Counted from the stretch's first letter, positions 11,601 through 36,700 are shown. The stretch: 64,000 bases of DNA from an uncultured Clostridia bacterium (GCA_947585105.1 CANPWV010000003.1:221-64220); one strand, 5' to 3'. Made by a program: numbers and translations. The notes: generated by a model from the letters alone, not told the origin.

Positions 11601-14600
11601 GGATTATTTGCTTTCAATATATTTTGAACATTGACATCTTGGTTACTTGTTCTATATTCATAATCTTCTCTATAAATTCTTAAAACATAAGGTGGTTGTA
11701 AAGTATTATCACTAGCTTTAGTAAATCCGTTTTTTCCTAATTGATTATAATCATAAGTCATCTTAAATCCGTTTACAGCTACTTCAGCTCTAACAACATC
11801 TTTTTCAAGAGACAAGTCAGCTTCAGGTCTTACTTTTAAACCTAAGTTAATGTGTTTCAAATACTCTACACTATCTCCTTGCATTTCAGGATAGAAGAAT
11901 GTAAATGATCTAGATTTTTCGTTTAATACACAACTATCATAATTGTTATAATCCCATTTTGCATAACTCTTTTGTAGTCTTTGTCCTTCTTCTTCATAAT
12001 CCATAGGTTTTTGAGGTGAACTTCCAGTTGTTCCTTGGAAAGCTTTATCATTTGCAATAGTTTCTAGTCTACTATTGAAGTCATCTCTTTTAAATCTACC
12101 ATTATATTTAGATGATGTCTCATCATATTCTTTTGCATCTGAATCGTTCTCAAAATTATTTATCATATTATGAGTTCCATCCAAATTTGTTGGAGTAATA
12201 TTATTTGCGTTACTATCATTTAAAATTCCGTTTAACGCAGCATCTACTGGCTCAAATCGTTCACCATCATAGTTAAATATTATGTAATATCTCAATAAAG
12301 AACTGTCAGCGTAATAATATTGCATTCCCGGTTTAATGTCATAATATGGTGGTGTTTGTGGAGAACCTTGTCCAATATTTTTTCCTTTTCTTACTCTACC
12401 AAAATTAAATTCACCTGTTGAAGTATCAACTTCTTTTGTTACCATTAATTGTTCTTGACCATCTTCTACTTTCCACAATTCAACTTTAATGTGTTTATAT
12501 TGGTCTCTTGCCATTCCACTAATATTTTCATTAGTTCCATCTTTTACATTGTTATTATTCTTATCTAAGAATACAACTCCTTTTACTTCTGGGTCTAAGA
12601 CTCTGACGTAATCGTAGTCTTCTCCTTCGATATTACCACTTCTTATTATTACTTGTCCATCAAAATAGCTACAATTATCATGTAAACAAATAGGAACTGT
12701 ATAAGTCTCCCATATTCCACTCCAAAAATAGTAATATGTATATGTTTGTTCTTTCCAGTTAGCATGATTAATTAAACATTGATTTTGTATACATTCATAT
12801 CTAGCGTTATAAATCTTATTTTCTAGATTTGGTATTCTCATATTTGAAGCTATTACATTAAATCCAAGTTTTATTTCAACTTCTAAGTCTCCACTAGGAC
12901 ATTCTTCACCTAAATCAATACCAATCTTAATATCTGAGCCATTTCCACCATAAGAAGGGTTTTCTTTAATTGTACCAATATTTGTAGTCGCAGAAATTTG
13001 TCCATTATAAGCTAATCCTTCTGTCATATATTCATCTGTACAATACAATCTTATTAAATGTATCTTGTAACAATTATCCATATGATTCTGATAATCATTA
13101 ATAACATTTGAATTCATACAATGATATTCAACAAAGTTTTCCCACCAAAGACTAGATATATTTTCAATTTTTAATTTTACAGTATATTCAATTTGACTTC
13201 CTTGTATTACTTCAGCAGGTCTTGTTTCTTTCCAGTTTTTATCTTTTTCTTTTCTATCACCAACAAAAGAACCGCTTGGAGCACTTGTTACATTACTAAT
13301 CCATTTTTCAATTTTTGTATCTTCTGGAGGTTGTGATGGTGGATTTTCAACTTTAAAGTAATCTGAAGATGGATCTGGCTGTCTAACTTTTGGATTTTCT
13401 TTATCTCCTACCTTTGTTATTATAAATCGAGCTGTATTTTTATATGTTCCACCAATTCCACTTGGAAATCTTGCTGTAATTGTTATAGTAAATTCATCAC
13501 CAGGTCCAAGTGTTATTTCAGAACCACTAGAAGTACTGATACTTTGAATACTTATAAGTGAATCTGGAGTATCTATAAATACACCTGTTACTTCTTTATT
13601 TTCATCTTCATTTTTAAGAGTTACTTTATATGTTATTGTTTTATCTGTAGTACTATCTCCAGCGTCTGCTGGGCTTCCGGCTTTAGTTCCTTCATCCATA
13701 ATAGAACGATCTTCTCCGCTCATATTTCCATTTACAATAGATTCGATATATTTATTAAGTTTTACCTCTACATTTCCTTCTATTTTTACCCATTCCCATG
13801 AATTTATTGGTTCTTCATTTTCTGGTGTAAATGTAGATTCATTTTTCCATTTATCTTCTTCCTCTCCAGGAGTAGTTGTTCCACCTTTTGGGAATTTAGC
13901 TTTTACAGTAATTAAAAGTGTACTCTTTTTAGGAATTGTTAATGTATTTACACTTTCTGTTGATGAATATTGCATTTGAGCTGGGAATGAAGATACATCA
14001 GATCCATTTAATTTCAATACATTAGTTTCTTCGTTTGTATCTTCAGTAGCAAAATCAGTTATTTCTACTCCAGTTATTTCAATAGGAGCCTCAGGTTTAT
14101 CTTTAAACTCTCCATTAATTGAACTACTATTGTCATTTGTAAGTTTTATAGTATATGTTATTTCTCTATCTTCATCATCTGTCTTTAAATCAAATGGTTC
14201 TTCTTTCTTTTGATCCTCTGTCCAAAATTCACGTGAATCTGAATTTTCATTGCCTTGTGAATCATCATTAGGTTCACTCGAATTGTCATCAGAATAGCCA
14301 ATTGCATTTAAAATTGAATTATACCAAAGGTTACATCCTTCACTATTTAAGTGATAACCAGAGCCATCATCATATTGTTCCATTAAAAATCCATTTTGAT
14401 TAATTTGGTCAGTAACATCTACTAATTTTATATTTCCAGAACATAAACCTCTAAGATAGCTATTAAAACTATTTATATATTGATTTTTGGTTTCATAACC
14501 ACCTGTATAATTTTTAGATACGTTAGAAATCTTTAATACATAAATTGTTTTATCTGGATAGCTACTTTGCAATTTATTTAATAATTCTGACATAGTTCCA

Positions 14601-16174: not shown

Positions 16175-19100
16175 CTATTTATAAATTTTCTTTGTATTTT
16201 TAATTTTTATTATTATCATCGCAACAGCTGAAATCATTATGATTATAATTAATATTGTCATTATATATTCTACTGTTCTACCTGTTGAAACATTTATTAA
16301 TAAAGTTATTTCAGAATAATCATCTTCGCCTTTTTCTTTATTTCCTTCGATAGAGTCATTATCGTAAAATCCAAAAGCATTTGTATATTCTAAAATTTCA
16401 GCACTATTAATAAGTTTTACAGCTTCGCCATCTTCTAAACTTCTTCTTAATACTAATTCAAATTCTTTTGTTTCACCTGGCTTTATTTCTTTATCAACCA
16501 ACCCATTATAAATCAGTTCATTTTCAGGACTTATATACCATCCATCACTTCTATTTAATACAACTTGTACACCTTGAGGAAGATAATCAATAACTTTATT
16601 TACATAGCCTGTTGTATCTCCTTCATTTGTTATTTTAAATTTATAAGTTATATTTAAAACACTTGATTTATAATATTTTGATTTAATTTCTATTCTTGGA
16701 CTTTTATTATTTTCATAATTATAAATCTTAGTTCCTTCATCATTTTTTACTTCAATTTTTGAAATAGATTTTTCTAATTTTAAGTCAAAGTTTGTTCTAT
16801 CAACTATTCCAATATCAATTGAAAGTAAATTTGATCCATTAACAGTTATTTTATCTGTAACACCGAAAATTCCATTTGCTCCATTTAATGTAATTGTCTT
16901 TGAAATAGCATCTGAATTTTCAGTTGATTTAGCAGTTTCAACTTGATATTTTGTAACTTTATATAAAGATGAATTATAATCAAAAACTAATACATAATCT
17001 CCATTTTCAATTTCTGTAAATATGTATTCTCCGTTTTCATTTGTAACTGTTGTTTCAATTAAACCTGATGTATCAATTCCGCCATTAGCTGTAGCTCTAT
17101 ACAATGATACAATAACAGCTGATTTTAAAGCTTCTTCTGTTTCTCTTATTCCATTTTGATTTCTATCAATCCAAGCTAAACCTGAAATATAATATGTTTT
17201 TGTTGGTCTTAAATCATTTCCGAGAATTTCCACTATTGTTATTATTGTTATTACTATTGTTATTTACATTGCTGTTATTATTTTGGTTATTATTGTTTTG
17301 ATTGTTATTTTGACTATTGTTATTATTTCCTGAGTTTCCGTTATTACCACTATTTCCATTATTGTTGTTATTGTTATTTCCACTATTACCGCTGATTCCA
17401 CTATTGTTTATTTGTGGTTCTCTTTTTTCTGTTATATAAGGATTATCTATCTTATAAGAAAGTACTGGTAAATTAACATTTTTTGTTTCATCATCTATAA
17501 TAAGCTTAACTTCTATTAATTCTTGATCAGTATAAAATGATTTCTCATTAACTTTTGTCTTTATTAATAAACTTTTACTTCCTTGTGATTCTACAGTAAA
17601 ATTTTCATAAAATCCATCTTCTTTAATTTCTATATTTTTATCTTCATCTAAGAATTTAGCTTCTATTATATCTAAACCATCTGGAAGATCAAAATCTATA
17701 AAAGCTCCTTTTGAATCTACAAATCCTATATTTTTAATATCTAAATAAAATTCAATTTCTTGTCCATCTTTTACTAATGTTCCTGATTCAGTATTACTTG
17801 TAAAATTATATTCTAAAGATGTTTTTGTTTGATAAATTCTTCTAGTATAATCATTTGAACTATATTTATTTTCATTTATTGTAGCTTCTGATTTAACACT
17901 AAACACTTTACTATAAATATTTATATCTAAATCTGTACATTTTATAGAATAGAATAATTCTACTTCTTGACCTACCGATAATTTAGAAACATGAATAATT
18001 AATAATCTTTCTTCTGGTGTTTCTTGAATATCATATTTATAATTATTTAATTCCAAAGCTTTTATTTCAAACATTTTTGGAACTTTTATAATTACATCAA
18101 AATTTTCTAAATCATTTTCTGTAATATTTTTCAAGTAAACTTCTAATGGTAATGAAGAATCATTATAAATATCACTACTTTCTATATTTTCAGTTATACT
18201 TCTTTCAACTCTCATTTCAAGTTCAGCTTCTACTATATCATTTTTAAGTGTATTTACCTCTTTATCTTCATATCCATCTACAGAAACTATTATATTTCCA
18301 TATACCTCTTGAGTTTCTATTTCACTTAATTTTTTTACAATTACCTCATATTCAAGAGCTTTTGATTCATTAGGATTTAATTCGCCTATTGTAAATTCGA
18401 CATACTCTTTTTCATCTTTTGAATATTCTTTCATTTTTCTGACAGTTATGTCTGTAATCCATTCACTACTTTCTGGCTCTATATATTCCCAATCATAAAT
18501 ATTTGCGTTTTCAGCTTTTCCTTTGATTTTAATATTTCTAACAGTTTCGTTTGAAGTATTTCTTACTACAACAGTATATTTTAAAACTTGTCTTTCAAAA
18601 ACTGTATCAGCTTCACCTAAAATCACTCCACCTTGACTTACTTGTGTTCCTACTGTAAGTTCCACTAAATCTTGTTTATCTTTATCTTCGATATCGTCCA
18701 TGTCAATATCTTTTGTTTCAGTAAACATTCCTACTGCTGTTTGATTATAATAATTTTGCTCATCTATTTTGTAATAAACTGTGTAATTTGTATAAGCTGT
18801 TTTATTAAATCCAACACTTTCTGGAACCGTCAAATTATAGTCAAAAGTTACTCTTTCACCTTTTACTAAATTTTTATCTTTTAATACTATTTTATAAGAT
18901 TTTATATTACTAAAATCTCCTGGCTCTAAAGTCCAGCTATCTGAATCTACGCCTGCTAAAGGATCTTCTGAATAATATACATCTGATAATACTCCTCCTA
19001 AAGCAAGTCCGCCTTCTAAAGTTGTATCAAAATTTGTTCCCAAATCATTTCCGTTATTATCTTTATTTCCTATAAAAGGAATTCTACCAATGATTACAAC

Positions 19101-20751
19101 ATCATTTAATGTTGCTTCATAATTGTTCATAATTGAACTGTTTATATAAACCGTCTGATTTTTATTTGTTAATATTTGAATTTTTTCTGTTTGATCATCA
19201 TAACTTATAGCTGTAGCAACATCTGGCTCAGTTATTCTCATTGATCTAACTAATTCTTGTCTTCCAACAAAATTAACTTCAACATCTTCAGAATCTTTTC
19301 CTTCCAAAGAATATGTTTTTCTTATTCTATCTTTATTGGTGTATGTCATTTTGAACACATCACTTGAATCAGCTGTTAATCTATCAACATCAATGTCAGT
19401 ATAAAGAACTAATGTTGTTCCTTCGTTTGCTGCTCCAGGAGTATATTCTGATTGTGCACCTGAAAGATTTACCCTTAAAACTTTTTTCCCAAAAGGATTT
19501 GTATTTACGTTCCAATTATCTAATGATAATCCATTTTTATACAAAAGAGAAATTCCTGTGATATCCACACTATTTATTGCTGATGGAAATTCAATACTAA
19601 TAGATGGATTTTCAAACAAATCATATCTTTCTTGATCTGTTTTTAATGTGACATTTATAGCAACTTCGTTCTTTTCTTCAACAGATAGAGAATCTGTATC
19701 TACATCAATAGTCATTCTTGACTCTGTTTCTTCTAGATTTATATTTCCTTCTCCAATATAACTCTTAACTTCTTCACCTTTATGTAAGTCAACATGTGTT
19801 ACTGTGTTAATTGATGAAAACAAACTAATTTGGTTTTTAGTAAATTCAGTTTTATCACTAATTACTTTATCATTTTTGATTGATATATCTCCGTCATTTA
19901 AAATATTAGTAAATTCGAATTTTATTGAGCTTAAAGAGATTGGATATTGAAATACATAATCACCATTTACAACTTGACATTCTTTATTAATAAATCCTAG
20001 AATTTCGCCAGTTGGAAGATATACAGTTATATATCCATCTTCTCCAAGAATGTTATTAAATTCTTCTACAGAAACTCTAGTTTGTATGTAAGATGAATTT
20101 TCTCCTAATTCAACTCTTGTATTTGTTGTTATTAAATTTATTCCATCTTGATCATCTTGAACAGTAAGTGAAGTAATGTTTTTTCCACCTGTAATTGATA
20201 GAGTATCTATCGTATTGTAATTTGTTTTATAGCCTAAGTCAGATGTAGCGTTAGCGTAAAGATAGCCTTTATAGATACTTGAATTTTCAGATGTTACTTG
20301 AATTCCAACTTCTGGTTCAACATAAACCTCTTCTTCGCTTGGATTTTCTTCTGTATTTTGATCTTCTCCACCTACTTCTGTTTCGCCTTCTTGGTTGTCT
20401 TCCGGATTTTCTTCTTCAGGGGGTTGACCTTCTTCTACAGATTCTTCTGGGTTTTGGTTTTCTCCTACTACTTCTTCATCAATTGGATTTTCCTCTGAAT
20501 CTCCATTTGGTTCTTCTGTTTGTTCGTCTGGATTTTCTTCTCCAACTGATATTTCGTCATTTTGGTTGTTTTCTTCTTCGCCACCGAACAGCCACCTCAT
20601 CTGGGTTATATGGTTCAGTTTCTCCTCCTACTACTGTCTCACTAACAGCAATAGCGATTTGAGCAAAGCAAGAAAAATAGCTTTGTAAAACAACGAAAAC
20701 ACATAAAATTGCAATAAGCTTTTTCAAAGTTTTTTTCTTTTTTTCCATCAT
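16175..20751 (-). CDS. cell-surface protein A1 (1524 codons once two CGG sites are bridged). Order: signal peptide, acidic linker, Ig-like/DUF11 repeats, Asn-rich tract, SdrD-B-like domain, NVSTG anchor
   Basis: three ORFs (20557..20751, 17214..20600, 16175..17233) collinear with the intact 1781-aa paralog. 4577 nt minus 2 is a multiple of 3. Confidence 0.8.
16280..16294 (-). other. NVSTG sorting-signal-like motif followed by TM segment and K-rich tail
   Basis: LINVSTGRTVEYIMTILIIIIMISAVAMIIIKIKNTKKIYK. Confidence 0.4.
17219..17222 (-). other. frame-break site TCT CGG A in surface protein A1 (C-terminal part)
   Basis: in-frame CGG 2 codons before the stop of ORF 17214..20600. The +1 frame gives GNDLRPTKTYYISG, matching paralog TKTYKISG. 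Confidence 0.7.
17223..17405 (-). repeat. Asn/Gly/Ser low-complexity tract encoded by imperfect AAT/AAC-rich triplets
   Basis: NNSGISGNSGNNNNNNNGNSGNNGNSGNNNNSQNNNQNNNNQNNNSNVNNNSNNNNNNSGNS. Confidence 0.8.
20583..20586 (-). other. frame-break site GTT CGG T in surface protein A1 (N-terminal part)
   Basis: in-frame CGG in the signal-peptide ORF. The +1 frame continues GGEEENNQNDE, an acidic linker as in the paralog. Confidence 0.65.
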
Positions 20752-21062: not shown

Positions 21063-21512
21063 TTATAGCTTTTTATAAATTCTTTCTAATAAAGCTTCTT
21101 GTAAAACCTGAGAAAAGTTGAGGTTCAAGCTTTCTGCTTTTTTGTTTAACCATTGTGGAATAGTTAAATTTTTTCTAACAGATTTATTACTCCATTTTTG
21201 AAGAAAATCGTCTAAATTGACTAATACTAATGTTTTAAAAGAGCTTATTATATCTTTATCTTCTAGTTCCCAATATTTTTGAACTTCCTTTATATTAATA
21301 TCTTCTAACTTACTTTGTTTAGGAATTTCATTTTTGGTTACATCTTCTACATCTTCTAAATCTTCTAATATATATGAAGCTATTAGATCTTGAGCCATAT
21401 ATAAAGCTTCTTCAATAGTTTTTCCATAAGTATTATTAGTATTTAAATCTGGAACATAAACCAAATAATTTTCTTTAGTTTGAAATATACAAACTGGATA
21501 TACAACTTTCAT
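21063..21512 (-). CDS. hicB: HicB-family antitoxin with C-terminal RHH-like DNA-binding tail
   Basis: MKVVYPVCIFQTKENYLVYVPDLNTNNTYGKTIEEALYMAQDLI HicB fold; GAGGTG RBS before ATG 21510-21512. Confidence 0.75.
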   Translation of the reverse strand: MKVVYPVCIFQTKENYLVYVPDLNTNNTYGKTIEEALYMAQDLIASYILEDLEDVEDVTKNEIPKQSKLEDINIKEVQKYWELEDKDIISSFKTLVLVNLDDFLQKWSNKSVRKNLTIPQWLNKKAESLNLNFSQVLQEALLERIYKKL

Positions 21513-21534
21513 ATTACACCTCACATAATTAAAT

Positions 21535-21721
21535 TTATTTAAGTCCTGCTTGCTTTAGAATTGAATTAAGAGTTTTTATATCAATATCACCTTTGTGTTT
21601 TGGTATTGTTACTTTTCCGCAATTTTATTGGATGTTTATATTGATAATGTGAGCTTTTTGAAGCACCAATACAATACCAACCATCATCTCTTAATATTTT
21701 ATCGATTTGGCGAAAATTCAT
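21535..21721 (-). CDS. hicA: HicA-family mRNA interferase toxin; needs a +1 shift at CGG 21617-21619
   Basis: MNFRQIDKILRDDGWYCIGASKSSHYQYKHPIKL|GKVTIPKHKGDIDIKTLNSILKQAGLK; 187 nt minus 1 gives 62 codons. Confidence 0.7.
21616..21619 (-). other. frame-break site TTG CGG A in hicA
   Basis: in-frame CGG counted from ATG 21719-21721. Confidence 0.7.
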
Positions 21722-21873: not shown

Positions 21874-22857
21874 TTAATAATATATATAACACTCTAGATT
21901 TCTTCTACCGAAACTGTTACATTCAGCTTCTGTTTCCATATAGACATCTAGCTTACTATTTGTAATAGCTCCACCTCTGTCTTCTACTACGAACCAACCT
22001 TCATTCGGACAATTAGCAAAATATGGAATATAAATTATTGTTCCCATTGGTACTCCTGGTCCAGCAGCTACTGTATACCAGCTTGAAGTATAATTACCAG
22101 AAGCTGTTTTACCATAATCTGGATGTGATGGAGCTTTACCTCCACCAGCGTTTGAATACGCTGAAACATTTAATGTAGTAACTGTAGGAGTAATTCCTTG
22201 AACAGCATCTTTTAAAGAAATTGATGAACTAGCTCTATAACCACTAGAACGAGAAACTACTTTTGTAGAAACTTGAATAATCTTATCTACTGGTTCTTTT
22301 ATAACAGTTTCTGATATAACTGTTCTATTTACTTCTACATCATCTTCATATCTTACTTTATATTTAATTTCTTTTATTCCATTTTGACCATCTTGTAAAA
22401 CTTTATCTACTGTATCTGTTCCTGATTGTGAAACATCTTTAGTTACTGTTTCATAAGGAATTTCAACTTGTTCTACAACGATTTTTTCTGTTACTGTAAC
22501 ATAGCTTCCTAATATTTGTTCTGTAGTAACGCTAGTTTGTTCTTCAGCAACAACTACTGGTTTTTCAGTAATTTTAGATATTTCAATTGTTTTTGAAGCA
22601 TCTATTACAGAATTCAAACTTGGACTTACCTTTTCATCTGGTAAAAGAACTATATCATTTTCTTCTAATATATCAGCTACAGTAACTTTAGTTGTTACAA
22701 CTGAAACTTGAGTTTCGTCTGAAAATTTTATAGTAATATAATTTAGATCATTTTTTGACGCAAAAACAACAGCTACAAGTATAGCGATTAATATTATACT
22801 TATAGCAAGTATTTTTCTCAAAATCTTAAATGATGATATATTATCATCTAATTTCAT
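21874..22857 (-). CDS. YabE/RpfB-like protein (TM anchor, DUF348-like repeats, G5 domain, C-terminal 3D domain)
   Basis: G5-like GQNGIKEIKYKVRYEDDVEVNRTVISETV; 3D-like TASGNY...VAAGPGVPMGTIIYIP...VVEDRGGAI...LDVYM. Confidence 0.7.
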   Translation of the reverse strand: MKLDDNISSFKILRKILAISIILIAILVAVVFASKNDLNYITIKFSDETQVSVVTTKVTVADILEENDIVLLPDEKVSPSLNSVIDASKTIEISKITEKPVVVAEEQTSVTTEQILGSYVTVTEKIVVEQVEIPYETVTKDVSQSGTDTVDKVLQDGQNGIKEIKYKVRYEDDVEVNRTVISETVIKEPVDKIIQVSTKVVSRSSGYRASSSISLKDAVQGITPTVTTLNVSAYSNAGGGKAPSHPDYGKTASGNYTSSWYTVAAGPGVPMGTIIYIPYFANCPNEGWFVVEDRGGAITNSKLDVYMETEAECNSFGRRNLECYIYY

Positions 22858-22924: not shown

Positions 22925-23479
22925 TTAAAAGCTTACTTTTACGTTCTTTCTAGCTTCTTCATTTTCTACTTCAAATAATTCTGATTTTTCAAAATGAAAA
23001 ATACCAGCAATTATATTTGTAGGAATTACATCAATCTTTGTATTATATTCATTTACAGAATTATTATATGAAAGTCTTGAACTAGCAATTTTTTCTTCTG
23101 TACTTGAAAGCTCACTTTGTAATTGTAAAAAGTTTTCATTAGCTTTTAACTCTGGATAATTTTCAGCAACTAAATAAATAGATTTTAAACTATTATTTAA
23201 ACTTGAATTTAATTTTCCTTTTTCTCCAACTGTTTTAGCTTCATTCCAAGATGTTCTAAGTTCAGTAACTTTTGTTAAAACTTCACTTTCATGTTTAGCG
23301 TAGCCTTTTACAGTTTCAACTAAATTTGGAATTAAATCAAATCTTCTTTGTAGTTGAACATCTATTCCGCTCCATTCTTCTTTTACTTTATTTCTACTAG
23401 AAACTAATGAATTATAGCCTAAAGCTACTAATACAGCTAAAACTAAAATTACTACAATTACACCAATTAAAATTCCCAT
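22925..23479 (-). CDS. lemA: LemA family protein
   Basis: N-terminal TM then YNSLVSSRNKVKEEWSGIDVQLQRRFDLIPNLVETVKGYAKHE. Confidence 0.8.
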   Translation of the reverse strand: MGILIGVIVVILVLAVLVALGYNSLVSSRNKVKEEWSGIDVQLQRRFDLIPNLVETVKGYAKHESEVLTKVTELRTSWNEAKTVGEKGKLNSSLNNSLKSIYLVAENYPELKANENFLQLQSELSSTEEKIASSRLSYNNSVNEYNTKIDVIPTNIIAGIFHFEKSELFEVENEEARKNVKVSF

Positions 23480-23544
23480 TATTATACTTCCTTTCTCTAT
23501 CTAAAATAGCTTTGGCTTCTTGCCAAAGCTATTTTTCTCTTTAA

Positions 23545-24435
23545 TTATTTGTCATAATTATTATATTTAGAATACTTTTTATAGAATACATAACCTAGTA
23601 TAGCTAATACTACTATTATCGGAACTATTGTAAATCTAGCACCTGTTTTTGGTAAATTTGTATCAGATACTGTATTGTCTACTGGTTTCTGTTGTTGACC
23701 ATTTTGATTTGGTGTTTGTGATTGATTTTGTGTTACATTTTTAGTTTCATTTCTTGTCTCGTTTTTAGTTTCATTTTTTGTTTCGTTTTTTACTTCATTT
23801 TTTGGTTCATTATTAGTTTCATTTTTCACAGCATTATTTGTATTATTGTTATCTGTAGCTTTTCTCTCACTAACTGTAAGAGCTATAGTTTTATCAGTTA
23901 AAGTTTGTTTTTCTTCAGCATTATCTGTAAATATCTTAAATAACTTATAAACTACTGTAGATTCATGTTTTCCAACACTAACACCATCTTTTACTTTTAA
24001 ATTCAAAGTGATTAAATCTGTATCTTGACTTGTTATTGGTTTAGCAAAATTAATTACAACTTTATAATCTCCATCTTTTGAAGCAGGATCAACTGTAAAA
24101 ATTATTCCTACATCTGATAAATTAGAAGAATCATAAACAGGTAATATATTGTCTTCATTAATTTTTACTTTTTTATTTTCATCAGTTACTATACTATCAA
24201 CTGTCAATTTTTCAACAACATTTTCATCTATATCTATATAACCTTCAACAGCTTTAATTCCGTCATCAGCTTCTAATTTTGTTAATCTTAAAGTTACTTG
24301 AAAATTATCTCCTGGATAAACTGAATTATTAGCTTGTATTTTAAAACCAAGTTCTGCGCTGATAGTGGCATATACACTTGTAGTAAGTAATATAAGCATT
24401 ACAACAATATATAATACAACTTGTCTTTTTTTCAT
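23545..24435 (-). CDS. LPXTG-anchored surface protein with N-terminal cohesin-like domain and KNET repeat stalk
   Basis: signal peptide; VYPGDNFQVTLRLTKLEADDGIKAVEGYIDIDENVVE...LITLNLKVKDGVSVGKH beta-sandwich pattern; LPKTGA + TM + KK tail. Confidence 0.55.
   Translation of the reverse strand: MKKRQVVLYIVVMLILLTTSVYATISAELGFKIQANNSVYPGDNFQVTLRLTKLEADDGIKAVEGYIDIDENVVEKLTVDSIVTDENKKVKINEDNILPVYDSSNLSDVGIIFTVDPASKDGDYKVVINFAKPITSQDTDLITLNLKVKDGVSVGKHESTVVYKLFKIFTDNAEEKQTLTDKTIALTVSERKATDNNNTNNAVKNETNNEPKNEVKNETKNETKNETRNETKNVTQNQSQTPNQNGQQQKPVDNTVSDTNLPKTGARFTIVPIIVVLAILGYVFYKKYSKYNNYDK
23641..23655 (-). other. LPKTG sortase sorting signal
   Basis: NLPKTGARFTIVPIIVVLAILGYVFYKKYSK. Confidence 0.7.
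23738..23832 (-). repeat. about 8 tandem 12-nt units encoding (K/R)NE(T/V) repeats
   Basis: KNETNNEPKNEVKNETKNETKNETRNETKNVT; 12-nt periodicity ttttagtttcat / tttttgtttcgt on the plus strand. Confidence 0.75.
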
Positions 24436-24620
24436 AACAACTATCTCCCCTATTTTTTTATCTACAATAATAAAATAACATTAATAATTAAAAAAATCAA
24501 TAGTTTTTTTATAAAAATTATTATAAAATTTTACCAAAAATAAAAAAAGAAAATTGCCTAATAAATTAAGCAATTTTCTTTTTAAATATATATTTTAAGA
24601 AGGAAATGTTGCAAGCTAAA

Positions 24621-27600
24621 TTATCTTTCGAAACTTACAATTCTATCTGCTCTATATTTTAAGATTAATAAAGCATCTTGGCTATCAACTTCCCCATCGT
24701 GATTTACGTCGGCTGCTGAATTGTAAACTCCTAAAAGAGCTCTTGTATCGTTTATAACTTGTCTTACGATACCAGAATCTAGAGCATCTACTTCTCCGTC
24801 TCCATTTACGTCACCTTTAACAACTGTTTCTAATATTCCTAAAACTTGATTTTCACTTCTGTTTGAAACTGTTACAACAGAACCTGTTTCAATATTTTCT
24901 TTTGAATCATTTTCTGTTACTGTAACTTTATAGTTATTTAAATCAACTAAAGTTTCAGCAAATTCATTTAATTTTGTTTTTGGTTTATAAACTAAGATAT
25001 AATCATCTTCTACATTATAACCATAAGTTAATGGTGTATCAGGTATTGATGGAAGAGTTCCACTTGATCCATTTAATACTTCATAATGAATTTTACAAAT
25101 TGTTCCATAACCAATTCCGTCAAATTCTAATTCATCTGATCCATTTCTTCCTTCAACCATAACTGTAGCAACATAATCACCTGTTTTTTCAGGAACTTTA
25201 ATTTGAGCAAATGTTCCTAATGGTTCAACGATTCCACCTAAACTATCAATACCAAATGATGTATTTTCATGATCTAATTCTTCTAATTGTTTGAATATTA
25301 ATGGAAGTGTTACTTGGAAGAATTCATCTCCAGTTTTAATAACTTTTAAATAAGTTTCTAATGTTTGATATCTAAAGCTTAAGTTAATTCCTACAGCTTT
25401 TAAATATTCTGGAACTGAATAATCATCTGTAAATCCATCTCCATCATGATCATAGCTCATAGCTTTTAGAACATATTGTTCACTAGCGTAGCTAATATCG
25501 CTATATTGGTTTTCAGAAAAATCAGCTGACTGTAAATCAGTCATATTTATTAAGCTAAAATCAAAAGTTCCTGATAATAAGTTTTTCTTTACATCTAACT
25601 CTTGTAATTTTGTTAATACTTCTAATGGTTTAATATCAGATATTTGGTTATAACCTAATCCTAATTTAGTTAATCTTGTAAAGCTTCCCCAGTCTATATT
25701 TGAAATATCAGTTAATAAGTTTTTATAAGCGTATAATTCTCTTAATTCTGTTAAGGCTGTTAATCCTTCAAAATCTCTTACCCAGTTATCATCCATATCT
25801 AAAACTTTTACTCTTGAAAGATAAATATATTCTTGAATCTCATCACCAGATATCAATGATAATTTATGAGCAATTATCATTTTGTAATTAGATTCAATTC
25901 CTGTAAGAGTTCCAGAGTAAGCTTTTTTTGGCATAGCAATTTTAAAATTATAAAGACTATTTTCAATTTTTAAACCAACACCATCTGTTCCATTTTCAAA
26001 AGTTTTAACTGTTATATCACTACTAAAACTACTTCCAGTATATGTTTCTAATTTATCTAACCAGAATGTATCTAAATCTTTTTCTTCATAAACTTCTTTT
26101 AATTCAGCTATTGCTTTACTTGATAAATCACTTGTATTTGATTCAAAAACGTTTTTAATTAAGCAATAATTTTGTATTTTTGATAAAACATCAATTCCTT
26201 TAAATATAAATACAAATTGTTGATAATCAACTAATTCTAATGTTTTATCAGATTTTACCGTTTCTAAAAATTCTGTTATTGGGTAATCAATAGGAACATT
26301 TGAATCTGAAACTTCACCATTGTCTTGAACTATTGATTGTTTTTTTTCTGTTCTAAATTCAATTCCATTATCTTTACCCCATTTTGTTAATAAAGCCCTA
26401 ATTGCTTCATCTTCATATTTTGTTAATCCACCATTTTTTTCAAAATTAGAAACTCTTTCGATTATTGAATTAACATAATTTTGACTAGTTTCTTTGTCAG
26501 ATTCTATTAATTCTTCATAAGTCAATTTATTTACATCTATTGGTAAAAGAGACATTAATAAATATTCTTTTTTGTAAATATTATATAATTTTTCTACATA
26601 TTTATTAATTAAATTTTCAGATCTCTTCGCTGATTCAATAGCTTTATTTTCTTCATCTTTATACTCTTGCATTTGATTTCTCTTTGATGCTTGAGCTTCA
26701 GGTTCAGATATTTTTTCTAATTCTTTTTTAGCTTTTTCATAATTATCACTAGCTTCTTTTGCAATTCCCATTTGTTTGTCATATTCAGTGATATTTGTTT
26801 TTAATTCTTCTAGTATAGTTTGATATTTATTTCTTGTGTTTTCTTCTTCTGCAATTTTATTTTGTTCTAACTCTACAACTCTTGATACAGAATCAATATA
26901 GTTATAAGAAATATCTAAGTTTGATTTTAAACCTACAAATTTTTCAAGACCTCTTAAATCTTTAATTTGTTGATCATGTAATACAAGTGATGGAATATTA
27001 TTTACAATATCATCATCATTTATTACCATTATCAAAGCTTCATCATATTCTCTAGTATATAGATTTTTACCTGATGTTGCTGTAATTTCTTCATTTATCT
27101 CTTGATTATGTGATAATTGTTTCTTTACAGCTTTATAAAGATTTTCATCATCAAAAGCAATACCTGTTTCTGTATCATCAACTACAGCGTAATAAAAACT
27201 CATTTCAGTATTATTTAATTTACTTTTTGAATCTTTTATTTTGATGTCAACTCTAACTAAACCTTTTAAAGCTTTGTAGTTAGTTCCTTCACCTTCAGCA
27301 ACTTTAATTGATAATACTGTAGAACCATTTGCAAATGAATGTTCAAAATCAACTTCAGGTCCTTTTTCATTAAATTTGTAATTTACTTTTGTTACCCAAG
27401 ATGGTTTAATTCTATTTCCATCTTCTAATAAAATATCTGGTAATTCAACTTCAACTGTTTTTGATCTTCCTGTAGCTTCTTCTGAAGTATCAACTTCAAT
27501 TATTTCTCTACCAGTTACTTTTTGATTTGTGATATCTAGTCCTGCGATGCCACTATTATCACCTAATGATTTAATTGACTCTAATTTATTAGAAGATAAA

Positions 27601-27971
27601 TCTAGAGTAACTAAATTCATTTGACTCAAAGCTTCTAAACTTGTATCTTTGTCTAATTCATTTGCGTGTAAGTCAAGATTTGTAACATTTTTAAAAGCTT
27701 CTAATCCAGTTAAATCGTCAATTTCAGAATTTGATAAATCTAAGCTTCTAACTCTAGCAAGTTCTGATTCTGAAATAACAATTTTTCCACTCGCATCATT
27801 ATATTGTGCAGCAATACGTTGTGATGTTAAGTTTTCTTTTACTTTATAGTAAAGTTTACTATTAAGTGTAATCTCTACATTTTCAGCTGCTCTAACTGTT
27901 GTAAATGGTACGAGTAATTGTAGCAACATTGATAAAATCAATATTCCTACGATCAACATTTTCCTCCTCAT
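24621..27971 (-). CDS. secreted leucine-rich-repeat protein (1116 aa) with coiled-coil middle and C-terminal dockerin
   Basis: signal peptide; LRR blocks LDLSNSEIDDLTGLEAFKNVTNLDLHANEL and LTKLGLGYNQISDIKPLEVLTKLQELDVKKNLL. Confidence 0.75.
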   Translation of the reverse strand: MRRKMLIVGILILSMLLQLLVPFTTVRAAENVEITLNSKLYYKVKENLTSQRIAAQYNDASGKIVISESELARVRSLDLSNSEIDDLTGLEAFKNVTNLDLHANELDKDTSLEALSQMNLVTLDLSSNKLESIKSLGDNSGIAGLDITNQKVTGREIIEVDTSEEATGRSKTVEVELPDILLEDGNRIKPSWVTKVNYKFNEKGPEVDFEHSFANGSTVLSIKVAEGEGTNYKALKGLVRVDIKIKDSKSKLNNTEMSFYYAVVDDTETGIAFDDENLYKAVKKQLSHNQEINEEITATSGKNLYTREYDEALIMVINDDDIVNNIPSLVLHDQQIKDLRGLEKFVGLKSNLDISYNYIDSVSRVVELEQNKIAEEENTRNKYQTILEELKTNITEYDKQMGIAKEASDNYEKAKKELEKISEPEAQASKRNQMQEYKDEENKAIESAKRSENLINKYVEKLYNIYKKEYLLMSLLPIDVNKLTYEELIESDKETSQNYVNSIIERVSNFEKNGGLTKYEDEAIRALLTKWGKDNGIEFRTEKKQSIVQDNGEVSDSNVPIDYPITEFLETVKSDKTLELVDYQQFVFIFKGIDVLSKIQNYCLIKNVFESNTSDLSSKAIAELKEVYEEKDLDTFWLDKLETYTGSSFSSDITVKTFENGTDGVGLKIENSLYNFKIAMPKKAYSGTLTGIESNYKMIIAHKLSLISGDEIQEYIYLSRVKVLDMDDNWVRDFEGLTALTELRELYAYKNLLTDISNIDWGSFTRLTKLGLGYNQISDIKPLEVLTKLQELDVKKNLLSGTFDFSLINMTDLQSADFSENQYSDISYASEQYVLKAMSYDHDGDGFTDDYSVPEYLKAVGINLSFRYQTLETYLKVIKTGDEFFQVTLPLIFKQLEELDHENTSFGIDSLGGIVEPLGTFAQIKVPEKTGDYVATVMVEGRNGSDELEFDGIGYGTICKIHYEVLNGSSGTLPSIPDTPLTYGYNVEDDYILVYKPKTKLNEFAETLVDLNNYKVTVTENDSKENIETGSVVTVSNRSENQVLGILETVVKGDVNGDGEVDALDSGIVRQVINDTRALLGVYNSAADVNHDGEVDSQDALLILKYRADRIVSFER
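24624..24830 (-). other. type I dockerin-like module (two Ca-binding loop-helix repeats)
   Basis: GDVNGDGEVDALDSGIVRQVI ... ADVNHDGEVDSQDALLILKY. Confidence 0.7.
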
Positions 27972-28048
27972 TTTTTTAGTCCTCCTTAAATATTTTGTTA
28001 AGCCTATAATAACATTTTAAAAATTTTCGTCAATACCCAAAAAATTCC

Positions 28049-28098
28049 AAAAAAACAGACCGTTTCAAAAGTCCTTACGGAAAGACTTTTTAAACGGT
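28049..28098 (-). terminator. intrinsic terminator after tatD
   Basis: 15-bp stem ACCGTTTCAAAAGTC / GACTTTTTAAACGGT, T7 run on the minus strand. Confidence 0.6.
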
Positions 28099-28188
28099 TT
28101 GAATTTTAAAGATTAAATTTTGATTACATTTTTTGACGTTTTTTACACTTTTTCTAGGAAGATATAGGTTTGAGGCCTTAAAAAATTT

Positions 28189-28956
28189 TTATAATTTATA
28201 AACTTTTATTCCATTTTGATAAGTTATTTCTCCAATTTCTTCTAGAGTTTTATTTTTTATTTCAGCTATTTTTCTAGCTACTTCTATAACATTTCTTGAG
28301 TCATTACGTTTTCCTCTAAATGGCTCAGGGCTAAGATATGGAGAATCTGTTTCAATTAATATTTTGTCTAAAGGAACAGTTTCAACTGGAAGCTCTGGTT
28401 TAGAATTTTTAAAAGTAATTGTTCCACTAAAAGATATATAATAACCAAGTTTTAAGCCATCTTTTATTAATTCTACATTTAATGGGCAACAATGGAATAT
28501 TCCAGTATTTACACATTTATTTTCTTTTAATATTTTTATTGTGTCTAAATAAGCATCTCTTGTATGTATTGTAATTGGCAAGTCAAGTCTATTTGAAATT
28601 TCTATCTGTTTTATAAAAAACTGTTTTTGAAGCTCTCTCATATTAATGTCTTTTTCCCAATAATAATCAAGCCCGATTTCGCCTATTGCAAGAACTTTAG
28701 GATTCTTAGCCATTTCTTCGATTTGTTTTAAATCTTCTAATTTTAAACCTTCTATATCATTTGGAGAAACTCCACATGTACAATAAATATTTTCATGACT
28801 TTCGGCTATTTCTATAGCTTTTCTACTTGATTTAATATTATAGCCGATACACATAAATTTATCTACGCCTGACTCGAAAGTAGCTTTTATAATTTCTTCT
28901 CTATCTTCGTCAAATTTTTCGTCATTATAATGACTATGAGTATCAAATAATTTCAT
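28189..28956 (-). CDS. tatD: TatD family metal-dependent hydrolase
   Basis: MKLFDTHSHY..., GEIGLDYYW, ITIHTRDA, LIETDSPYL motifs. Confidence 0.85.
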   Translation of the reverse strand: MKLFDTHSHYNDEKFDEDREEIIKATFESGVDKFMCIGYNIKSSRKAIEIAESHENIYCTCGVSPNDIEGLKLEDLKQIEEMAKNPKVLAIGEIGLDYYWEKDINMRELQKQFFIKQIEISNRLDLPITIHTRDAYLDTIKILKENKCVNTGIFHCCPLNVELIKDGLKLGYYISFSGTITFKNSKPELPVETVPLDKILIETDSPYLSPEPFRGKRNDSRNVIEVARKIAEIKNKTLEEIGEITYQNGIKVYKL

Positions 28957-28968
28957 TTTTCCTCCATT

Positions 28969-29334
28969 TTATTTGAATAAAACTACAGCGCTAGCAACAG
29001 CATATTCCTTACAATGAGATATACTAACATCAATACTTTCAATTTCAGGTATTTCAGTTTTTAAATTAACTTCTGGTTTTCCACTTTCATTATTTATAAT
29101 TTCAAAATCTGTCCAAGAATAATTTTTATCAAGCTTCATACTTATCGCTTTAAAAATAGCTTCTTTTGCGGAAAATCTAGCAGCGTAATGTTGGAAACGT
29201 TGATTTTTATGGGATTCGCAATAGTCAACTTCTATTTTAGTAAAAATTTCGTCTTTAAATTTTTCTTCATATTTTTCTATCGCTTCTTCTATTCTCTTAA
29301 TCTCTATAATATCTGTTCCACAAGAAATCTTCAA
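28969..29334 (-). CDS. acpS: holo-ACP synthase (4'-phosphopantetheinyl transferase)
   Basis: 121 aa, GTDIIEIKRIEEAI..., FSAKEAIFKA, ISHCKEYAVA. Confidence 0.85.
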   Translation of the reverse strand: MKISCGTDIIEIKRIEEAIEKYEEKFKDEIFTKIEVDYCESHKNQRFQHYAARFSAKEAIFKAISMKLDKNYSWTDFEIINNESGKPEVNLKTEIPEIESIDVSISHCKEYAVASAVVLFK

Positions 29335-29354
29335 GTTAGTTTTCCTTTCTCAAA

Positions 29355-30884
29355 TTATTTTACATATAAGTTTAAATCTTTATCTTCATATAAATGATAT
29401 TTTTCTATAAAATCTATATATATGTTATTATCTAGGTTCACACTAGGTTTTAAGATAACAGTTCCATCTTTTCCTAATACTCCCCATTTTCCATCTTTCT
29501 TTACTACGCAATAGCCAAACTCGTTTTGTTCCTTACCATCATCATAAATATAATTTACAATTAAATCTCCATTTTGATTTACATATCCATATTTTCCGTC
29601 TTTGTTTACTAAGAATAATGTTCTATTTTTCAATACTTCAGTATTTTTCTTTTCTTCAAAATTGAAATTATAATATTTATATTGTCCATCTTCTCTGATT
29701 CTCATGTAACCATCATTTGTGTTCAATTCTGAAATTATAACATTTGAAAGTTTTACTTCTAATTTTCTAGAAATTATATCTGTTGAAGTACCATCAGTAT
29801 TTTCAGCAGTATAGAAATTGCAAGAAGGAATAAAACTCATACTCAAATATTGATAATTAATAACTATATTATTATCAGTTTTTATAACACCATATAAATT
29901 ATTATTTTCAACAATAAAATAATCTTCATAAGCAAATTTTAAATCTTGATATTGAACAGGAATTAGCTCTGTTCCATCTTTAGATATAACACCTTTAAGT
30001 CCATTTGATCCAATTGTTATATAATCTCCATTAATTTCATAAACTCGATCAAAACCGCCATCTTTAACTATATTTAGGCTATTGTCAATAATTTTTAATC
30101 CACTATCATCTTTTACAACATACATATTATTTCCTGAAACATTCTCTATTTCATTATAATTGCAAGCCAAAATTTCTTTTCCTGTTCCACTAAGAACTCC
30201 ATATTTTCCATCTTTATTAACTATATATCCATTATCAGAATTATCACTATTTAAGGTTTCAATATCATTGTAATTGGCTTCTACAACTATCATTCCTAAG
30301 CTAGAATTTACAATTCCTTTCAAATTATCTTTTTCTATAACAATACTTTTTTGAACTCCACTTAAAGCGTAAATATTAGTATATTCAGCTGGAACAATCT
30401 CTTTTCCAGAAAAATCAATTAATCCATATTTTCCATCTTTTTCAAATCTTAAAATGTTATCTTCATACCAGATATTGTTATTATCTGAATTTTCAAGTGG
30501 AGTAACATTATTATATTGTTTTAATATTTCTTTACCTGTTTCATTTAAAATTTTTGTCTTATAGCTTCCATTTTCTTCGTTTACATCATAAACGCAGATA
30601 AACACTGGCTTAGAGCTATTTGGTATAATAATTGATTCATCATAAATAGATTGAATTATATTTTTTCCAGTTCCATCAATTACTCCATATTTTCCACTTT
30701 CATACACTGTAAAATATCTAGTTGGAATAATCATTTCAGTAACTTTACTATCTTTTTTAGTCAATAGTTTTATTACAGAAACAATAACCATTATTAAAAC
30801 AATAATAGCAATTATTGTAGCAAAAACTTTTTTCAAATTTAACTTTGGTTCATTATCATATCTTCTAGCTCTAACTCTATTCAT
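29355..30884 (-). CDS. membrane-anchored WG (KWG) repeat protein
   Basis: N-terminal TM then about 9 repeats of DGKYG(L/V)ID..GKEI(I/V)P..Y. Confidence 0.7.
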   Translation of the reverse strand: MNRVRARRYDNEPKLNLKKVFATIIAIIVLIMVIVSVIKLLTKKDSKVTEMIIPTRYFTVYESGKYGVIDGTGKNIIQSIYDESIIIPNSSKPVFICVYDVNEENGSYKTKILNETGKEILKQYNNVTPLENSDNNNIWYEDNILRFEKDGKYGLIDFSGKEIVPAEYTNIYALSGVQKSIVIEKDNLKGIVNSSLGMIVVEANYNDIETLNSDNSDNGYIVNKDGKYGVLSGTGKEILACNYNEIENVSGNNMYVVKDDSGLKIIDNSLNIVKDGGFDRVYEINGDYITIGSNGLKGVISKDGTELIPVQYQDLKFAYEDYFIVENNNLYGVIKTDNNIVINYQYLSMSFIPSCNFYTAENTDGTSTDIISRKLEVKLSNVIISELNTNDGYMRIREDGQYKYYNFNFEEKKNTEVLKNRTLFLVNKDGKYGYVNQNGDLIVNYIYDDGKEQNEFGYCVVKKDGKWGVLGKDGTVILKPSVNLDNNIYIDFIEKYHLYEDKDLNLYVK

Positions 30885-33757: not shown

Positions 33758-36700
33758 TTAGTGTCTAACTAGAACTTTTTTCTTAATGATAACAATTGCT
33801 ACAGCTACCATAATTACAGCTATTAATACAACTATAATTAATTGTGTTGTTCTAGATTCAACTGGACTTAAACCTGTTGGTGGAGATAATGTAATTACCT
33901 CAGTAGCACTAGCATCTTTCTCCTTACCGTTATTTGCAACCGCATAAATTCCAATTGGTTCATCACCATCTAATTGATATGGGTTTGCGTTACCAGCAAT
34001 GTTTCTTGCATCTCTTCTACCAGCTGTATTTTCAAACTTAACTATTTCGGCTAAGTTATCAATATCATTTGCATCTGATTCTGAAGAATAGAATCTAGAA
34101 ACTGTTAATGTCATACTTCCTGTAGATCTATTAGTATTCTTACTCAATCTATATGGTTCTAAGAATTTAATGAAGCTTGGATTTGAACCTGTATCTTGAG
34201 ATTCACCATTTTCCATTGTTAATACTATATTGTTCTTTGAACCAACGATATATTCTTGTAATTTATCACTTATGATTGAATATCTTTCTCCATCAGCTAA
34301 TGTGTCGTTAGCTGTTTTACCAGTTACTCTTCCGTCTGTGTCTAATATTTGAACAGTTGATGGATCTATTAATTTGTTTTCTAGCAAGTATTCAATTTGT
34401 GTAGTTGTCCAGCTTTGATCTCTAGAGATATTATTCATATCTGTAAATTCAACATCTGGATCTATATAATCTAACATTTGATGAACTTTAGTTTTTACTA
34501 TAGTTTCATCTGGTCTTACTCCAACGCCTTGGCTACCTAAGTAGTAAACGCTTCCGAAATAAGTACCATATCCAACATTTTTACCTTCGTAAACTCTTGT
34601 ATCATCTTTATAAGTATGTGTAGAAACTTTAGCAAGTGCTGATTCAAAAGCTTCGCTCTGCAATGTGTTCATATCAATATTAGTTGTATCAATCATTGTC
34701 CATAGATTTTCTAGGTCTTTACTAATTCTATCAGTTTCACTCATATTAAATATTGTGAATTGATATTTAACTTGAATTTGAGTACCTTGAAGAATTTCAC
34801 TATCAACAATTAGGTATCTATAACCTTGATTATTCTTTCCATTTCTGTTTAATGAAGTAATATGGTCGAAGTTTGTTGAAGCTTCTTCATTTAAACTTAC
34901 AGTAGCAGCAATACTTCCATCATCTTTTAATGTATAGCTAATGTCATATATTGCATCTAATATTACTTTATTATCAGATGTCATTAATGTAATTTGTTTA
35001 ATTTGTTTATCTAGAGTAATCTTTGTTTTAGATCTTTCTTCGATACCACAGTCTATGTTTCCAACAGTGTAAGTAATATGTTCAGTACCAACATCTCTAC
35101 CTGTTTGTGTAGCTTTACCATCAATTAAGCCAATTTCAACTCCACCTACATTTTCAGTTCTACTATTATCAATCTTATAAGTATTTTCTACTCCAAGATT
35201 AATCTTAGCAGTTTCTGAATACATATATTGTCCAGAACCTTTAACAGGGTCTGTTAATTTAGCTTCTTGATAATTTCCAAATAAATCAGTATGATCAGCA
35301 TCTTTAACATCTGCTGTAGCTAGTAAAGTTGTGTTAGGATTTGTTAACATTTCAGATTGTGCTGAAATATATAATCTTCTAGCTTCGTCATCACGAGCGT
35401 CGTTTACTCTTAAATCAGATAAACTACTATTAGATAAATCGTGCCATTCGTTATCTACATAACCATCGCCATCTTTATCATTATCAAATCCGATTTGGTA
35501 AGCTGTTGATTTATAGTCTTGACCATTATAAACTACTAATGAATCTTGATTTCCTGTAAATACTTCTTTATCACCATAAACATATCTTACTTTATAGTTA
35601 CCAGCTGGCATATTTACGAATGAATATTCACCGTTCTCTGTAACTGTAGATTGTCTAAATCCTCCAGTTACTGTAGGAATATCAATTGTTTGTCCATTAA
35701 CAGTCATTGTCTTTGGCCAAGCAAATAAGTATTCTTCGTATGAACCATCACCTTTTGGAATTGAGATTGATTCATAAATTTCAACAGTTAAATCATTAAT
35801 TAGTTTATCTCCCTCTTCTGGGTTATATAAACCATTACCAACGACTTGTCCTGAACCGATATCTCTTGTTTGACTATCTTCCCAAACAATACCATTTAAA
35901 ATTCTGTTTTCATCTGAAATTCCAATTGTAATAATTGGTGCTGAATCTGTATCATCTTCATAATATTGTTTTTCATTGTAATTTGTAATATTTATATTAT
36001 CTGGAGCTGAATCTTCATCGACTCTACCAGAAATTTGTGCTGGTGAACTCCATCTATTAGTTGATTTACTTGAATAATATGAAGTAAATTTTGTAATTTC
36101 AGCTGTATTGTGTTTATCACCTAATCTGATTAAATCAGTTAATCCACTATTATCTACGCTATCTCTATTAACTTTAAATGTTACTAGAATAGAAGCTCTT
36201 TCACCTGTAGCTAATTTTCTACCAGCTAGGCTTGAAGTTGTAAGTTTATTATATGTTACTCCATCACTACCTGAATAACTTTGACCTCTAGTCCAAGTAA
36301 CTCCAGATGTTCCAGAAGCTTGATTTCCTGAAGTATAATATGTTACACTTGAAGGTTCTCCAACAACAATTTGGTCGTTTACTTCTTTTCCATTTACATC
36401 TTGAACATATCTAAACTCTTGCTTATCTATTAATGTAAATGAATCATCATAGTAATCAGCAACTTCACCAACAGTTACATCATAAGTATCTGATTGGTTA
36501 TAAACATTAATTGTATATTTTAGGTAAACTTCCATTTCAGTTACATCTAAGTTTACTCCGAATTTTCCGTTATAGAATCCAGCTAACTGATTTCCAGCTT
36601 CACTTCCATTGTAAACTTCAGCTCTGTAATAGTAATCACCTTTATATAAACCAAGTTTATATTCAACTTGAGCATCAGCTACTGCTAATTGTTTATAAAG

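Follow-up and report, generated by a model that had tools for sequence, protein, structure and literature searches.

In Ruminococcus bromii, the protein Sca2, which carries a cohesin and a sortase signal, binds the dockerin of the '2x LRR' (leucine-rich repeat) protein CBL14720.1, as found by microarray and enzyme-linked immunosorbent assay (Ze et al. 2015, PMC4611034). Ruminococcus flavefaciens has ScaE, a protein with a single type III cohesin and an LPXTG anchor, and SIGN-LRR-Doc proteins are encoded in the same genome (Rincon et al. 2010, PMC2930009). In Cellulosilyticum lentocellum (C. lentocellum), the single cohesin and dockerin genes of ClcC/ClcD are adjacent and their products form a heterodimer (PMC13487519). 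According to a 2026 preprint, sequence profiles miss many ruminococcal cohesins, which come to light only through structure prediction (10.64898/2026.02.05.704116). Here we describe a pair of adjacent genes in a 64,000-nucleotide stretch of DNA from an uncultured Clostridia bacterium of the rabbit gut (GCA_947585105.1, CANPWV010000003.1:221-64220; hereafter the window). One gene encodes a 1116-amino-acid (aa) secreted LRR protein that ends in a dockerin, and the other, directly downstream, encodes a 296-aa protein that appears to combine a divergent cohesin with a sortase-type wall anchor.

Like Sca2, the 296-aa protein has a single cohesin with a C-terminal sortase signal, and its proposed client, like that of Sca2, is secreted and has two LRR regions and a C-terminal dockerin. 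Sca2 differs in being promiscuous and part of an amylosome in which amylases are the main clients, and the two R. bromii genes are apparently not neighbours, judging by their accession numbers. In the present pair, by contrast, each gene invariably adjoins the other, we see no enzyme as a client, and Pfam fails to detect the cohesin of the window protein because of its divergence. The resemblance to ScaE lies in the single-cohesin protein with an LPXTG-type wall anchor and in the presence of an LRR-dockerin protein in the same organism. However, ScaE belongs to the sca cluster, where X-dockerin modules attach the scaffoldin ScaB and the cellulose-binding protein CttA to it, whereas our pair has neither a sca-like cluster nor a context of carbohydrate-active enzymes. 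Among the structural matches, 2zf9 (ScaE) comes only at rank 26, with a template-modelling (TM) score of 0.52. As with ClcC/ClcD, one cohesin gene adjoins one dockerin gene, but ClcC/ClcD enhances cellulase activity and the pair described here has LRR modules and no catalytic domain.

The best structural matches are cohesins of the Clostridium perfringens GH33/GH84 toxin complexes (2vo8, 2jh2, 2o4e, 2w1n), which likewise exemplify cohesin-dockerin pairing outside plant cell-wall degradation. They are nevertheless internal modules of large glycoside hydrolases rather than small sortase-anchored proteins, and identity to them is 12-14%. The second LRR block of the 1116-aa protein is similar to those of the Listeria internalins (InlA, InlB, InlH), which are also surface-displayed protein-binding modules; internalins are attached directly, via LPXTG or GW modules, whereas the present protein would be attached indirectly via its dockerin. 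Finally, like the ruminococcal cohesins of the preprint, the window cohesin is missed by Pfam and by word search and was revealed by family profiles together with structure prediction.

We consider it likely, with a probability of about 0.7, that the two genes constitute a cohesin-dockerin surface-display system that hangs an LRR binding protein on the cell wall; the binding step is one that we infer from the sequences and by analogy with the systems above. As proposed, the pair works like a known system, and it is distinct in its strict adjacency, in the absence of a visible enzyme client and in its fixation in a core region of a whole uncultured clade. It opens no new category, because binding has already been demonstrated for a pair of the same architecture in R. 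bromii.

An earlier sequence-only reading of this stretch had placed several open reading frames (ORFs) here, and all of them were recovered at the same positions, on the minus strand. The ORF of the anchoring protein (23545-24435, minus strand) encodes a signal peptide, a cohesin, a low-complexity linker and an LPKTG signal; the signal peptides of both proteins were read by eye. The globular part, which had been called cohesin-like, spans residues 26-190 (23866-24360, minus strand). Neither an NCBIfam scan nor phmmer against the Protein Data Bank (PDB) gave a cohesin signal for the 296-aa protein. We therefore describe its identity at the level of the family, which was gathered by an exhaustive HMMER scan that returned 237 relatives at E ≤ 1e-3 and 55 at E ≤ 1e-10. 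Six proteins encoded by downstream genes at orthologous positions align end to end with the 296-aa protein at 34-57% identity. Pfam Cohesin has matches in three of seven positional orthologs and in 10 of the 30 family members compared (best E = 7e-9). The orthologs at loci L025 and L027 reach 33.6 and 28.4 bits, respectively, where the cutoff is 24.1, and cover profile positions 2-126 and 2-132 of 139. When the family profile was compared with PDB sequences, the nine best matches were all cohesins, the best being 1g1k (E = 3.1e-5).

Predicted structure points in the same direction. A single-sequence AlphaFold2 model of the 296-aa protein was poor, with a predicted local distance difference test score (pLDDT) of 42. 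With a 30-sequence alignment, pLDDT was 88-98 over residues 26-190, and the model has nine long strands and two short ones. In a Foldseek search of this model against the PDB, ranks 1-12 were all cohesins (E = 5e-6 to 8e-4), with the non-cellulosomal C. perfringens cohesins first and 2vo8 as the best match (E = 5e-6, TM 0.71 normalised to the target). Target-normalised TM scores within these twelve were 0.49-0.71, except for the 335-residue two-cohesin chain 3l8q (0.29). Pilin and integrin beta-sandwich domains appeared with weaker scores at ranks 13-25. Three independent lines, namely orthology, family profile and predicted structure, thus indicate that the globular domain of the 296-aa protein is a divergent cohesin. 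The earlier assignment holds up on family profiles and predicted structure; it does not extend to the window protein taken alone, which lacks a Pfam Cohesin match.

The identity of the dockerin is more straightforward. The gene for the secreted LRR-dockerin protein (24621-27971, minus strand; Pfam LRR_4, LRR_EndoS, LRR_8 and Dockerin_1) encodes, in order, a signal peptide, an N-terminal LRR block, a coiled-coil or helical middle, an internalin-like LRR block, an unassigned region and the C-terminal dockerin. The description of this protein in the sequence-only reading, as an LRR protein with a two-repeat dockerin at its end, was borne out. The dockerin module (residues 1048-1110; 24642-24830, minus strand) has two Ca-binding loops, DVNGDGEVDALD and DVNHDGEVDSQD, exactly as first quoted, and both fit the 12-residue EF-hand-like pattern D-x-N/D-x-D-G-x-hydrophobic-D/N-x-x-D followed by a helix. 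Pfam Dockerin_1 (PF00404) matches residues 1052-1106 over profile positions 1-55 of 57, with 50.1 bits against a cutoff of 22.9 (E = 3.3e-13). Solved dockerins in the PDB, some of them crystallised with cohesins, align across both repeats (E = 7.5e-8 to 1e-4). About 20 full-length orthologs of the LRR-dockerin protein share 37-50% identity, and both Ca loops are kept in 20 orthologs. The dockerin is also the most conserved segment of this fast-evolving protein, with a mean p-distance of 0.46 versus 0.57-0.71 in the other regions.

The LRR character of both blocks was confirmed. The N-terminal block, at about residues 55-157 (27501-27809, minus strand), is matched by Pfam LRR_EndoS and LRR_NXF1-5 at residues 58-131, and residues 46-156 match designed LRR proteins in the PDB. 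The second block, at about residues 700-832 (25476-25874, minus strand), is matched by Pfam LRR_4 (E = 5e-22) and LRR_8, and its PDB matches are the internalins InlA and InlB (E = 4e-28). Membership of the internalin family itself was rejected: the scores against the NCBIfam models NF033189, NF033188 and NF033190 are 52-55 bits, with cutoffs of 1050-1600, and cover residues 704-832 only.

The C-terminus of the 296-aa protein reads LPKTG-ARFTIVPIIVVLAILGYVFY-KKYSKYNNYDK. This sorting signal (23548-23655, minus strand) consists of LPKTG (residues 261-265; 23641-23655), a hydrophobic helix and a basic tail (YKKYSKYNNYDK), and it fits the earlier description of a small wall-anchored protein encoded directly downstream of the dockerin gene. 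The tripartite arrangement of [LI]Px[TA]G, transmembrane helix and basic tail occurs in all cohesin orthologs. Among loci L001-L027 the sortase motif varies as LPKTG, LPNTG, LPDTG, LPKAG, LPATG, LPAAG and IPAAG, with Ala replacing Thr at the sortase cleavage position in one subclade. Matches of the relatives to Pfam Gram_pos_anchor are weak and below the cutoff (E = 0.36; E = 0.012, with 16 bits versus 20), so the sorting-signal assignment rests on the motif. The tail Y-x-K/R-Y-x-K-Y-K-D-I is unusually conserved in the orthologs, which hints at a dedicated sortase. With a single cohesin, a C-terminal sortase signal and no dockerin, the 296-aa protein has the anchor architecture of the ScaE/Sca2 type. 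Between cohesin and sorting signal lies an N/T/K/E-rich linker (residues 191-258; 23662-23865, minus strand), predicted to be disordered, with pLDDT < 50 over residues 197-250. It holds a (KNET)n 12-nt tandem repeat (23725-23826), and its length differs between orthologs.

Two giant surface proteins in the window carry sorting signals of a different kind. The 3184-aa protein (33758-43312, minus strand) and the 2493-aa protein (8678-16159, minus strand) both end in SPPTG, a transmembrane helix and a basic tail, and these ends resemble the (S/P)PxTG sorting class of C. difficile; the cohesin protein, with LPKTG, differs from them. The window therefore contains two classes of sorting signal.

Relatives of the locus were sought by scanning one genome per Genome Taxonomy Database (GTDB) species with a 7-sequence alignment as the query. 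The scan gave 18 loci, all in metagenome-assembled genomes (MAGs) of uncultured Clostridia from the guts of rabbit, mouse, roe and water deer, and human. Together with contigs fetched via protein look-ups, 27 loci of 8.7-21 kb were available. Three of them (L007, L009 and L021) are second copies and L022 re-samples the LRR-cohesin pair of L005, leaving 23 distinct loci besides the window, or 24 in total. In all 24, a small gene with a sorting signal lies directly downstream of the dockerin gene; in the contexts fetched, this gene encodes a protein of 288-322 aa. Every locus except L026 has exactly one dockerin ORF, with the dockerin at the C-terminus of the LRR protein, and exactly one cohesin-family ORF, immediately downstream. 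The gene order in 21 distinct relatives, and in L025 and L027, is acpS, tatD, LRR-dockerin, cohesin, (lemA), (M48 peptidase or GH25), yabE-like; the contigs of L011 and L022 stop before or inside the yabE-like gene. Because adjacency is strict in every relative examined, the LRR-dockerin and cohesin proteins are the obvious binding partners of one another. The DNA is also present in rabbit-gut and other gut metagenomes.

Locus L026 (8001-12033) is rearranged and contains, in this order, a G5-3D gene, an LRR-dockerin gene and a gene for a 261-aa LPKTG protein, with no tatD. Both its dockerin and the globular domain of its small protein have diverged strongly, past recognition by the family hidden Markov models. 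For the latter domain, assignment to the cohesin family failed, and only the sorting signal proved homologous (hhalign, 98.8% probability for the tail). Possibly the two L026 proteins diverged together; a replacement of the partner is another possibility.

Under the proposed mechanism, both proteins would be exported by Sec, as their signal peptides suggest. A sortase would then cut the 296-aa protein at LPKTG and join it covalently to peptidoglycan, a step suggested by the tripartite signal. The N/T/K/E-rich linker of about 65 residues, which is presumed to span the cell wall, would cross it and expose the single divergent cohesin. The C-terminal dockerin of the LRR protein would fold round two Ca2+ and plug non-covalently into this cohesin, as the identity of the two modules and their invariant adjacency suggest. 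The two LRR arcs, with the coiled-coil or helical spacer between them, would thus be held off the cell to bind a protein ligand, which may belong to the host, to mucus or to another microbe.

Several observations weigh against this proposal. Pfam Cohesin (PF00963) does not match the 296-aa protein even at E ≤ 1, and a word-index homology search with the domain returned one near-identical fragment only. No sortase, sought as an ORF containing TLxTC, was found in the 64-kb window or the fetched loci, and no RNA-seq run was found. When housekeeping divergence was controlled for in partial Mantel tests, the correlation of the dockerin with the cohesin was the lowest (r = 0.27), with other regions of the LRR protein at 0.36-0.56; since a correlation with the cohesin is seen for all of these regions, this test does not discriminate. 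Nor are the strands of the canonical 8-3-6-5 face more conserved than other cohesin strands (p = 0.27). The two genes are separated by a terminator-like hairpin with a T-run behind it (24544-24583, minus strand; inverted repeat I14, 19-nt arms, 95% complementary), and a second terminator-like hairpin follows the cohesin gene (23503-23535, unstranded; 14 pairs). Because of these two elements, the pair probably represents two adjacent transcription units rather than a tight operon, and the genes need not be co-transcribed. Further partners may also exist elsewhere in the genome, beyond the visible 64 kb, and the pair may therefore not be the minimal system that the sequence-only reading had proposed.

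This last point leads to the most serious alternative, which we regard as rather unlikely and which is compatible with the main mechanism: the cohesin protein might be a general anchor like ScaE or Sca2, with the LRR protein being one client among dockerin proteins encoded genome-wide (enzymes, peptidases or scaffoldins). The outcome would be a larger cellulosome- or amylosome-like assembly instead of a dedicated 1:1 pair. There is precedent for such breadth in R. bromii, where Sca2 binds dockerins of amylases, a peptidase and an LRR protein (PMC4611034), and in R. flavefaciens, where ScaE binds both ScaB and CttA (PMC2930009). Promiscuous cohesins are among the closest structural matches to the window domain, and the 64 kb at hand are only part of the genome. 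Within the window and the 27 loci, however, no second dockerin or cohesin was found, and a dockerin-only search of low sensitivity gave short dockerin fragments only and no other architectures. Strict 1:1 adjacency across deep divergence likewise argues for a dedicated pair.

A second alternative is that the two proteins, although encoded side by side, do not interact. The cohesin fold could then be an Ig-like stalk or a binder of some other ligand, and the dockerin could instead sit on a wall polymer, a distant cohesin or some other receptor. Non-cellulosomal genomes commonly encode dockerins for which there is no cognate cohesin. The partial Mantel and 8-3-6-5 face tests gave no specific signal, the genes look like separate transcription units, and the predicted fold also resembles, with weaker scores, pilin and integrin beta-sandwich domains. 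Nevertheless, the genes are adjacent in 24 of 24 distinct loci, even in the rearranged L026, the twelve top structural matches are cohesins without exception, and the dockerin is under the strongest constraint within the LRR protein. In R. bromii, moreover, binding has been demonstrated for a pair of like architecture (PMC4611034), and we consider the absence of binding improbable.

The surface-display system thus remains our preferred reading, and the pair is most likely an ancestral, fixed feature of an uncultured clade of low-GC gut Clostridia, located in a core region (spoIIE, acpS, tatD ... yabE-like, comM, dprA). The pair has diverged in step with its housekeeping flanks (raw r = 0.73), a pattern that vertical descent would produce. 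In Bacillus subtilis, yabD (tatD) and yabE are adjacent; compared with this order, the additional genes represent a derived but old, vertically inherited state. That the interval of about 5.3 kb (LRR-dockerin, cohesin, lemA) was instead recently inserted between tatD and the yabE-like gene, as the sequence-only reading had proposed, is very hard to credit: its content is derived relative to the B. subtilis order, and the pair evolves faster than its flanks (26-53% versus 56-86% identity among relatives), but the same arrangement is found in all relatives examined (rabbit, mouse, deer and human gut MAGs), the GC content of the interval (0.25-0.28) is no different from the flanks, neither bordering repeats nor tRNA genes were found, nor any integrase or transposase, and divergence scales with the flanks. 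With interval content universal in the clade, which the sequence-only reading had itself named as grounds for refutation, flank-like GC and no mobility features, a mobile or accessory cassette was rejected.

The interval had been described as holding lemA, the cohesin-like gene and the LRR-dockerin gene between tatD and the yabE-like gene. The pair is indeed constant there, but lemA is not. In the window, lemA (22925-23479, minus strand; Pfam LemA, E = 8e-61) follows the cohesin gene. It is often beside the pair, though not always, being missing in L003, L004 and L009, and in the more distant subclade of L005, L006, L025 and L027 it is followed by an M48 peptidase gene. It probably stands outside the cohesin-dockerin system. 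The upstream housekeeping flank is tatD (28189-28956, minus strand; Pfam TatD_DNase, E = 3e-77; TIGR00010, 260 bits) and the downstream one is the yabE-like gene of DUF348-G5-3D architecture (21874-22857, minus strand; Pfam G5, 3D and DUF348).

The DNA of the window is low in GC (about 27%), and its minus strand carries nearly all genes; the surroundings of the pair are core chromosome (mreBCD, PBP2, minC, spoIIE, acpS, tatD, comM and dprA). On either side of the region lie genes for further large surface proteins, which have DUF11/CLIPPER and SdrD_B domains (43305-48650 and 16175-17233, both on the minus strand). Giant genes similarly flank the locus in relatives, so this is a conserved core region rich in surface proteins. 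Between the WG-repeat gene and acpS, most of L001-L006 have a conserved gene of about 418 aa without a Pfam family, which is missing in the window (28969-30884) and in L008.

Some other genes of the window appear to be split. The genes for comM (Mg-chelatase-like; 6069-6740 and 6942-7685), dprA (5187-5594 and 5503-6057) and a PBP2-type transpeptidase (50354-51451 and 51411-52547) are each present as two ORFs, and comM and dprA are undivided in L025 and L027. These split ORFs may be frameshifts, pseudogenes or assembly errors. A 1128-aa ORF (17214-20600, minus strand) belongs to no Pfam family, has no signal peptide and ends in an N-rich low-complexity C-terminus without a sorting signal. Just upstream of it, in another frame, a 64-aa ORF (20557-20751, minus strand) does carry a signal peptide; this suggests that a large gene for a surface protein is frameshifted near 20560-20600. 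Between the yabE-like gene and the 1128-aa gene that lies downstream of it are a hicB-like antitoxin gene (21063-21524, minus strand) and a truncated hicA-like ORF of 44 aa (21587-21721, minus strand). Both are missing at the same position in relatives; in L001, for example, a giant gene directly follows the yabE-like gene. The hicB/hicA-like ORFs look like a true strain-specific insertion at this locus.

For annotation, the pair illustrates a limit, in that its cohesin goes unseen by Pfam and by word-based homology search. Since their modules evolve fast and stay strictly paired in more than 20 species, the two proteins also offer a good natural data set for the study of cohesin-dockerin specificity. 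For the organisms, the pair is a conserved example of cohesin-dockerin pairing that would serve to display an LRR module, not an enzyme, in commensals that live in the guts of rabbits, rodents, ruminants and humans; its LRR protein is a candidate factor for adhesion to host or microbe. We suggest more tentatively, as a possibility somewhat short of even odds, that a whole clade of apparently non-cellulolytic gut Clostridia keeps a dedicated system of one cohesin and one dockerin near envelope and sporulation genes, with an internalin-like double-LRR protein as its sole client. If so, cohesin-dockerin binding would have been adopted in this clade as a stand-alone way of attaching an adhesin or envelope protein non-covalently to the wall, with no enzyme complex involved and with a cohesin subfamily that standard profiles largely miss.

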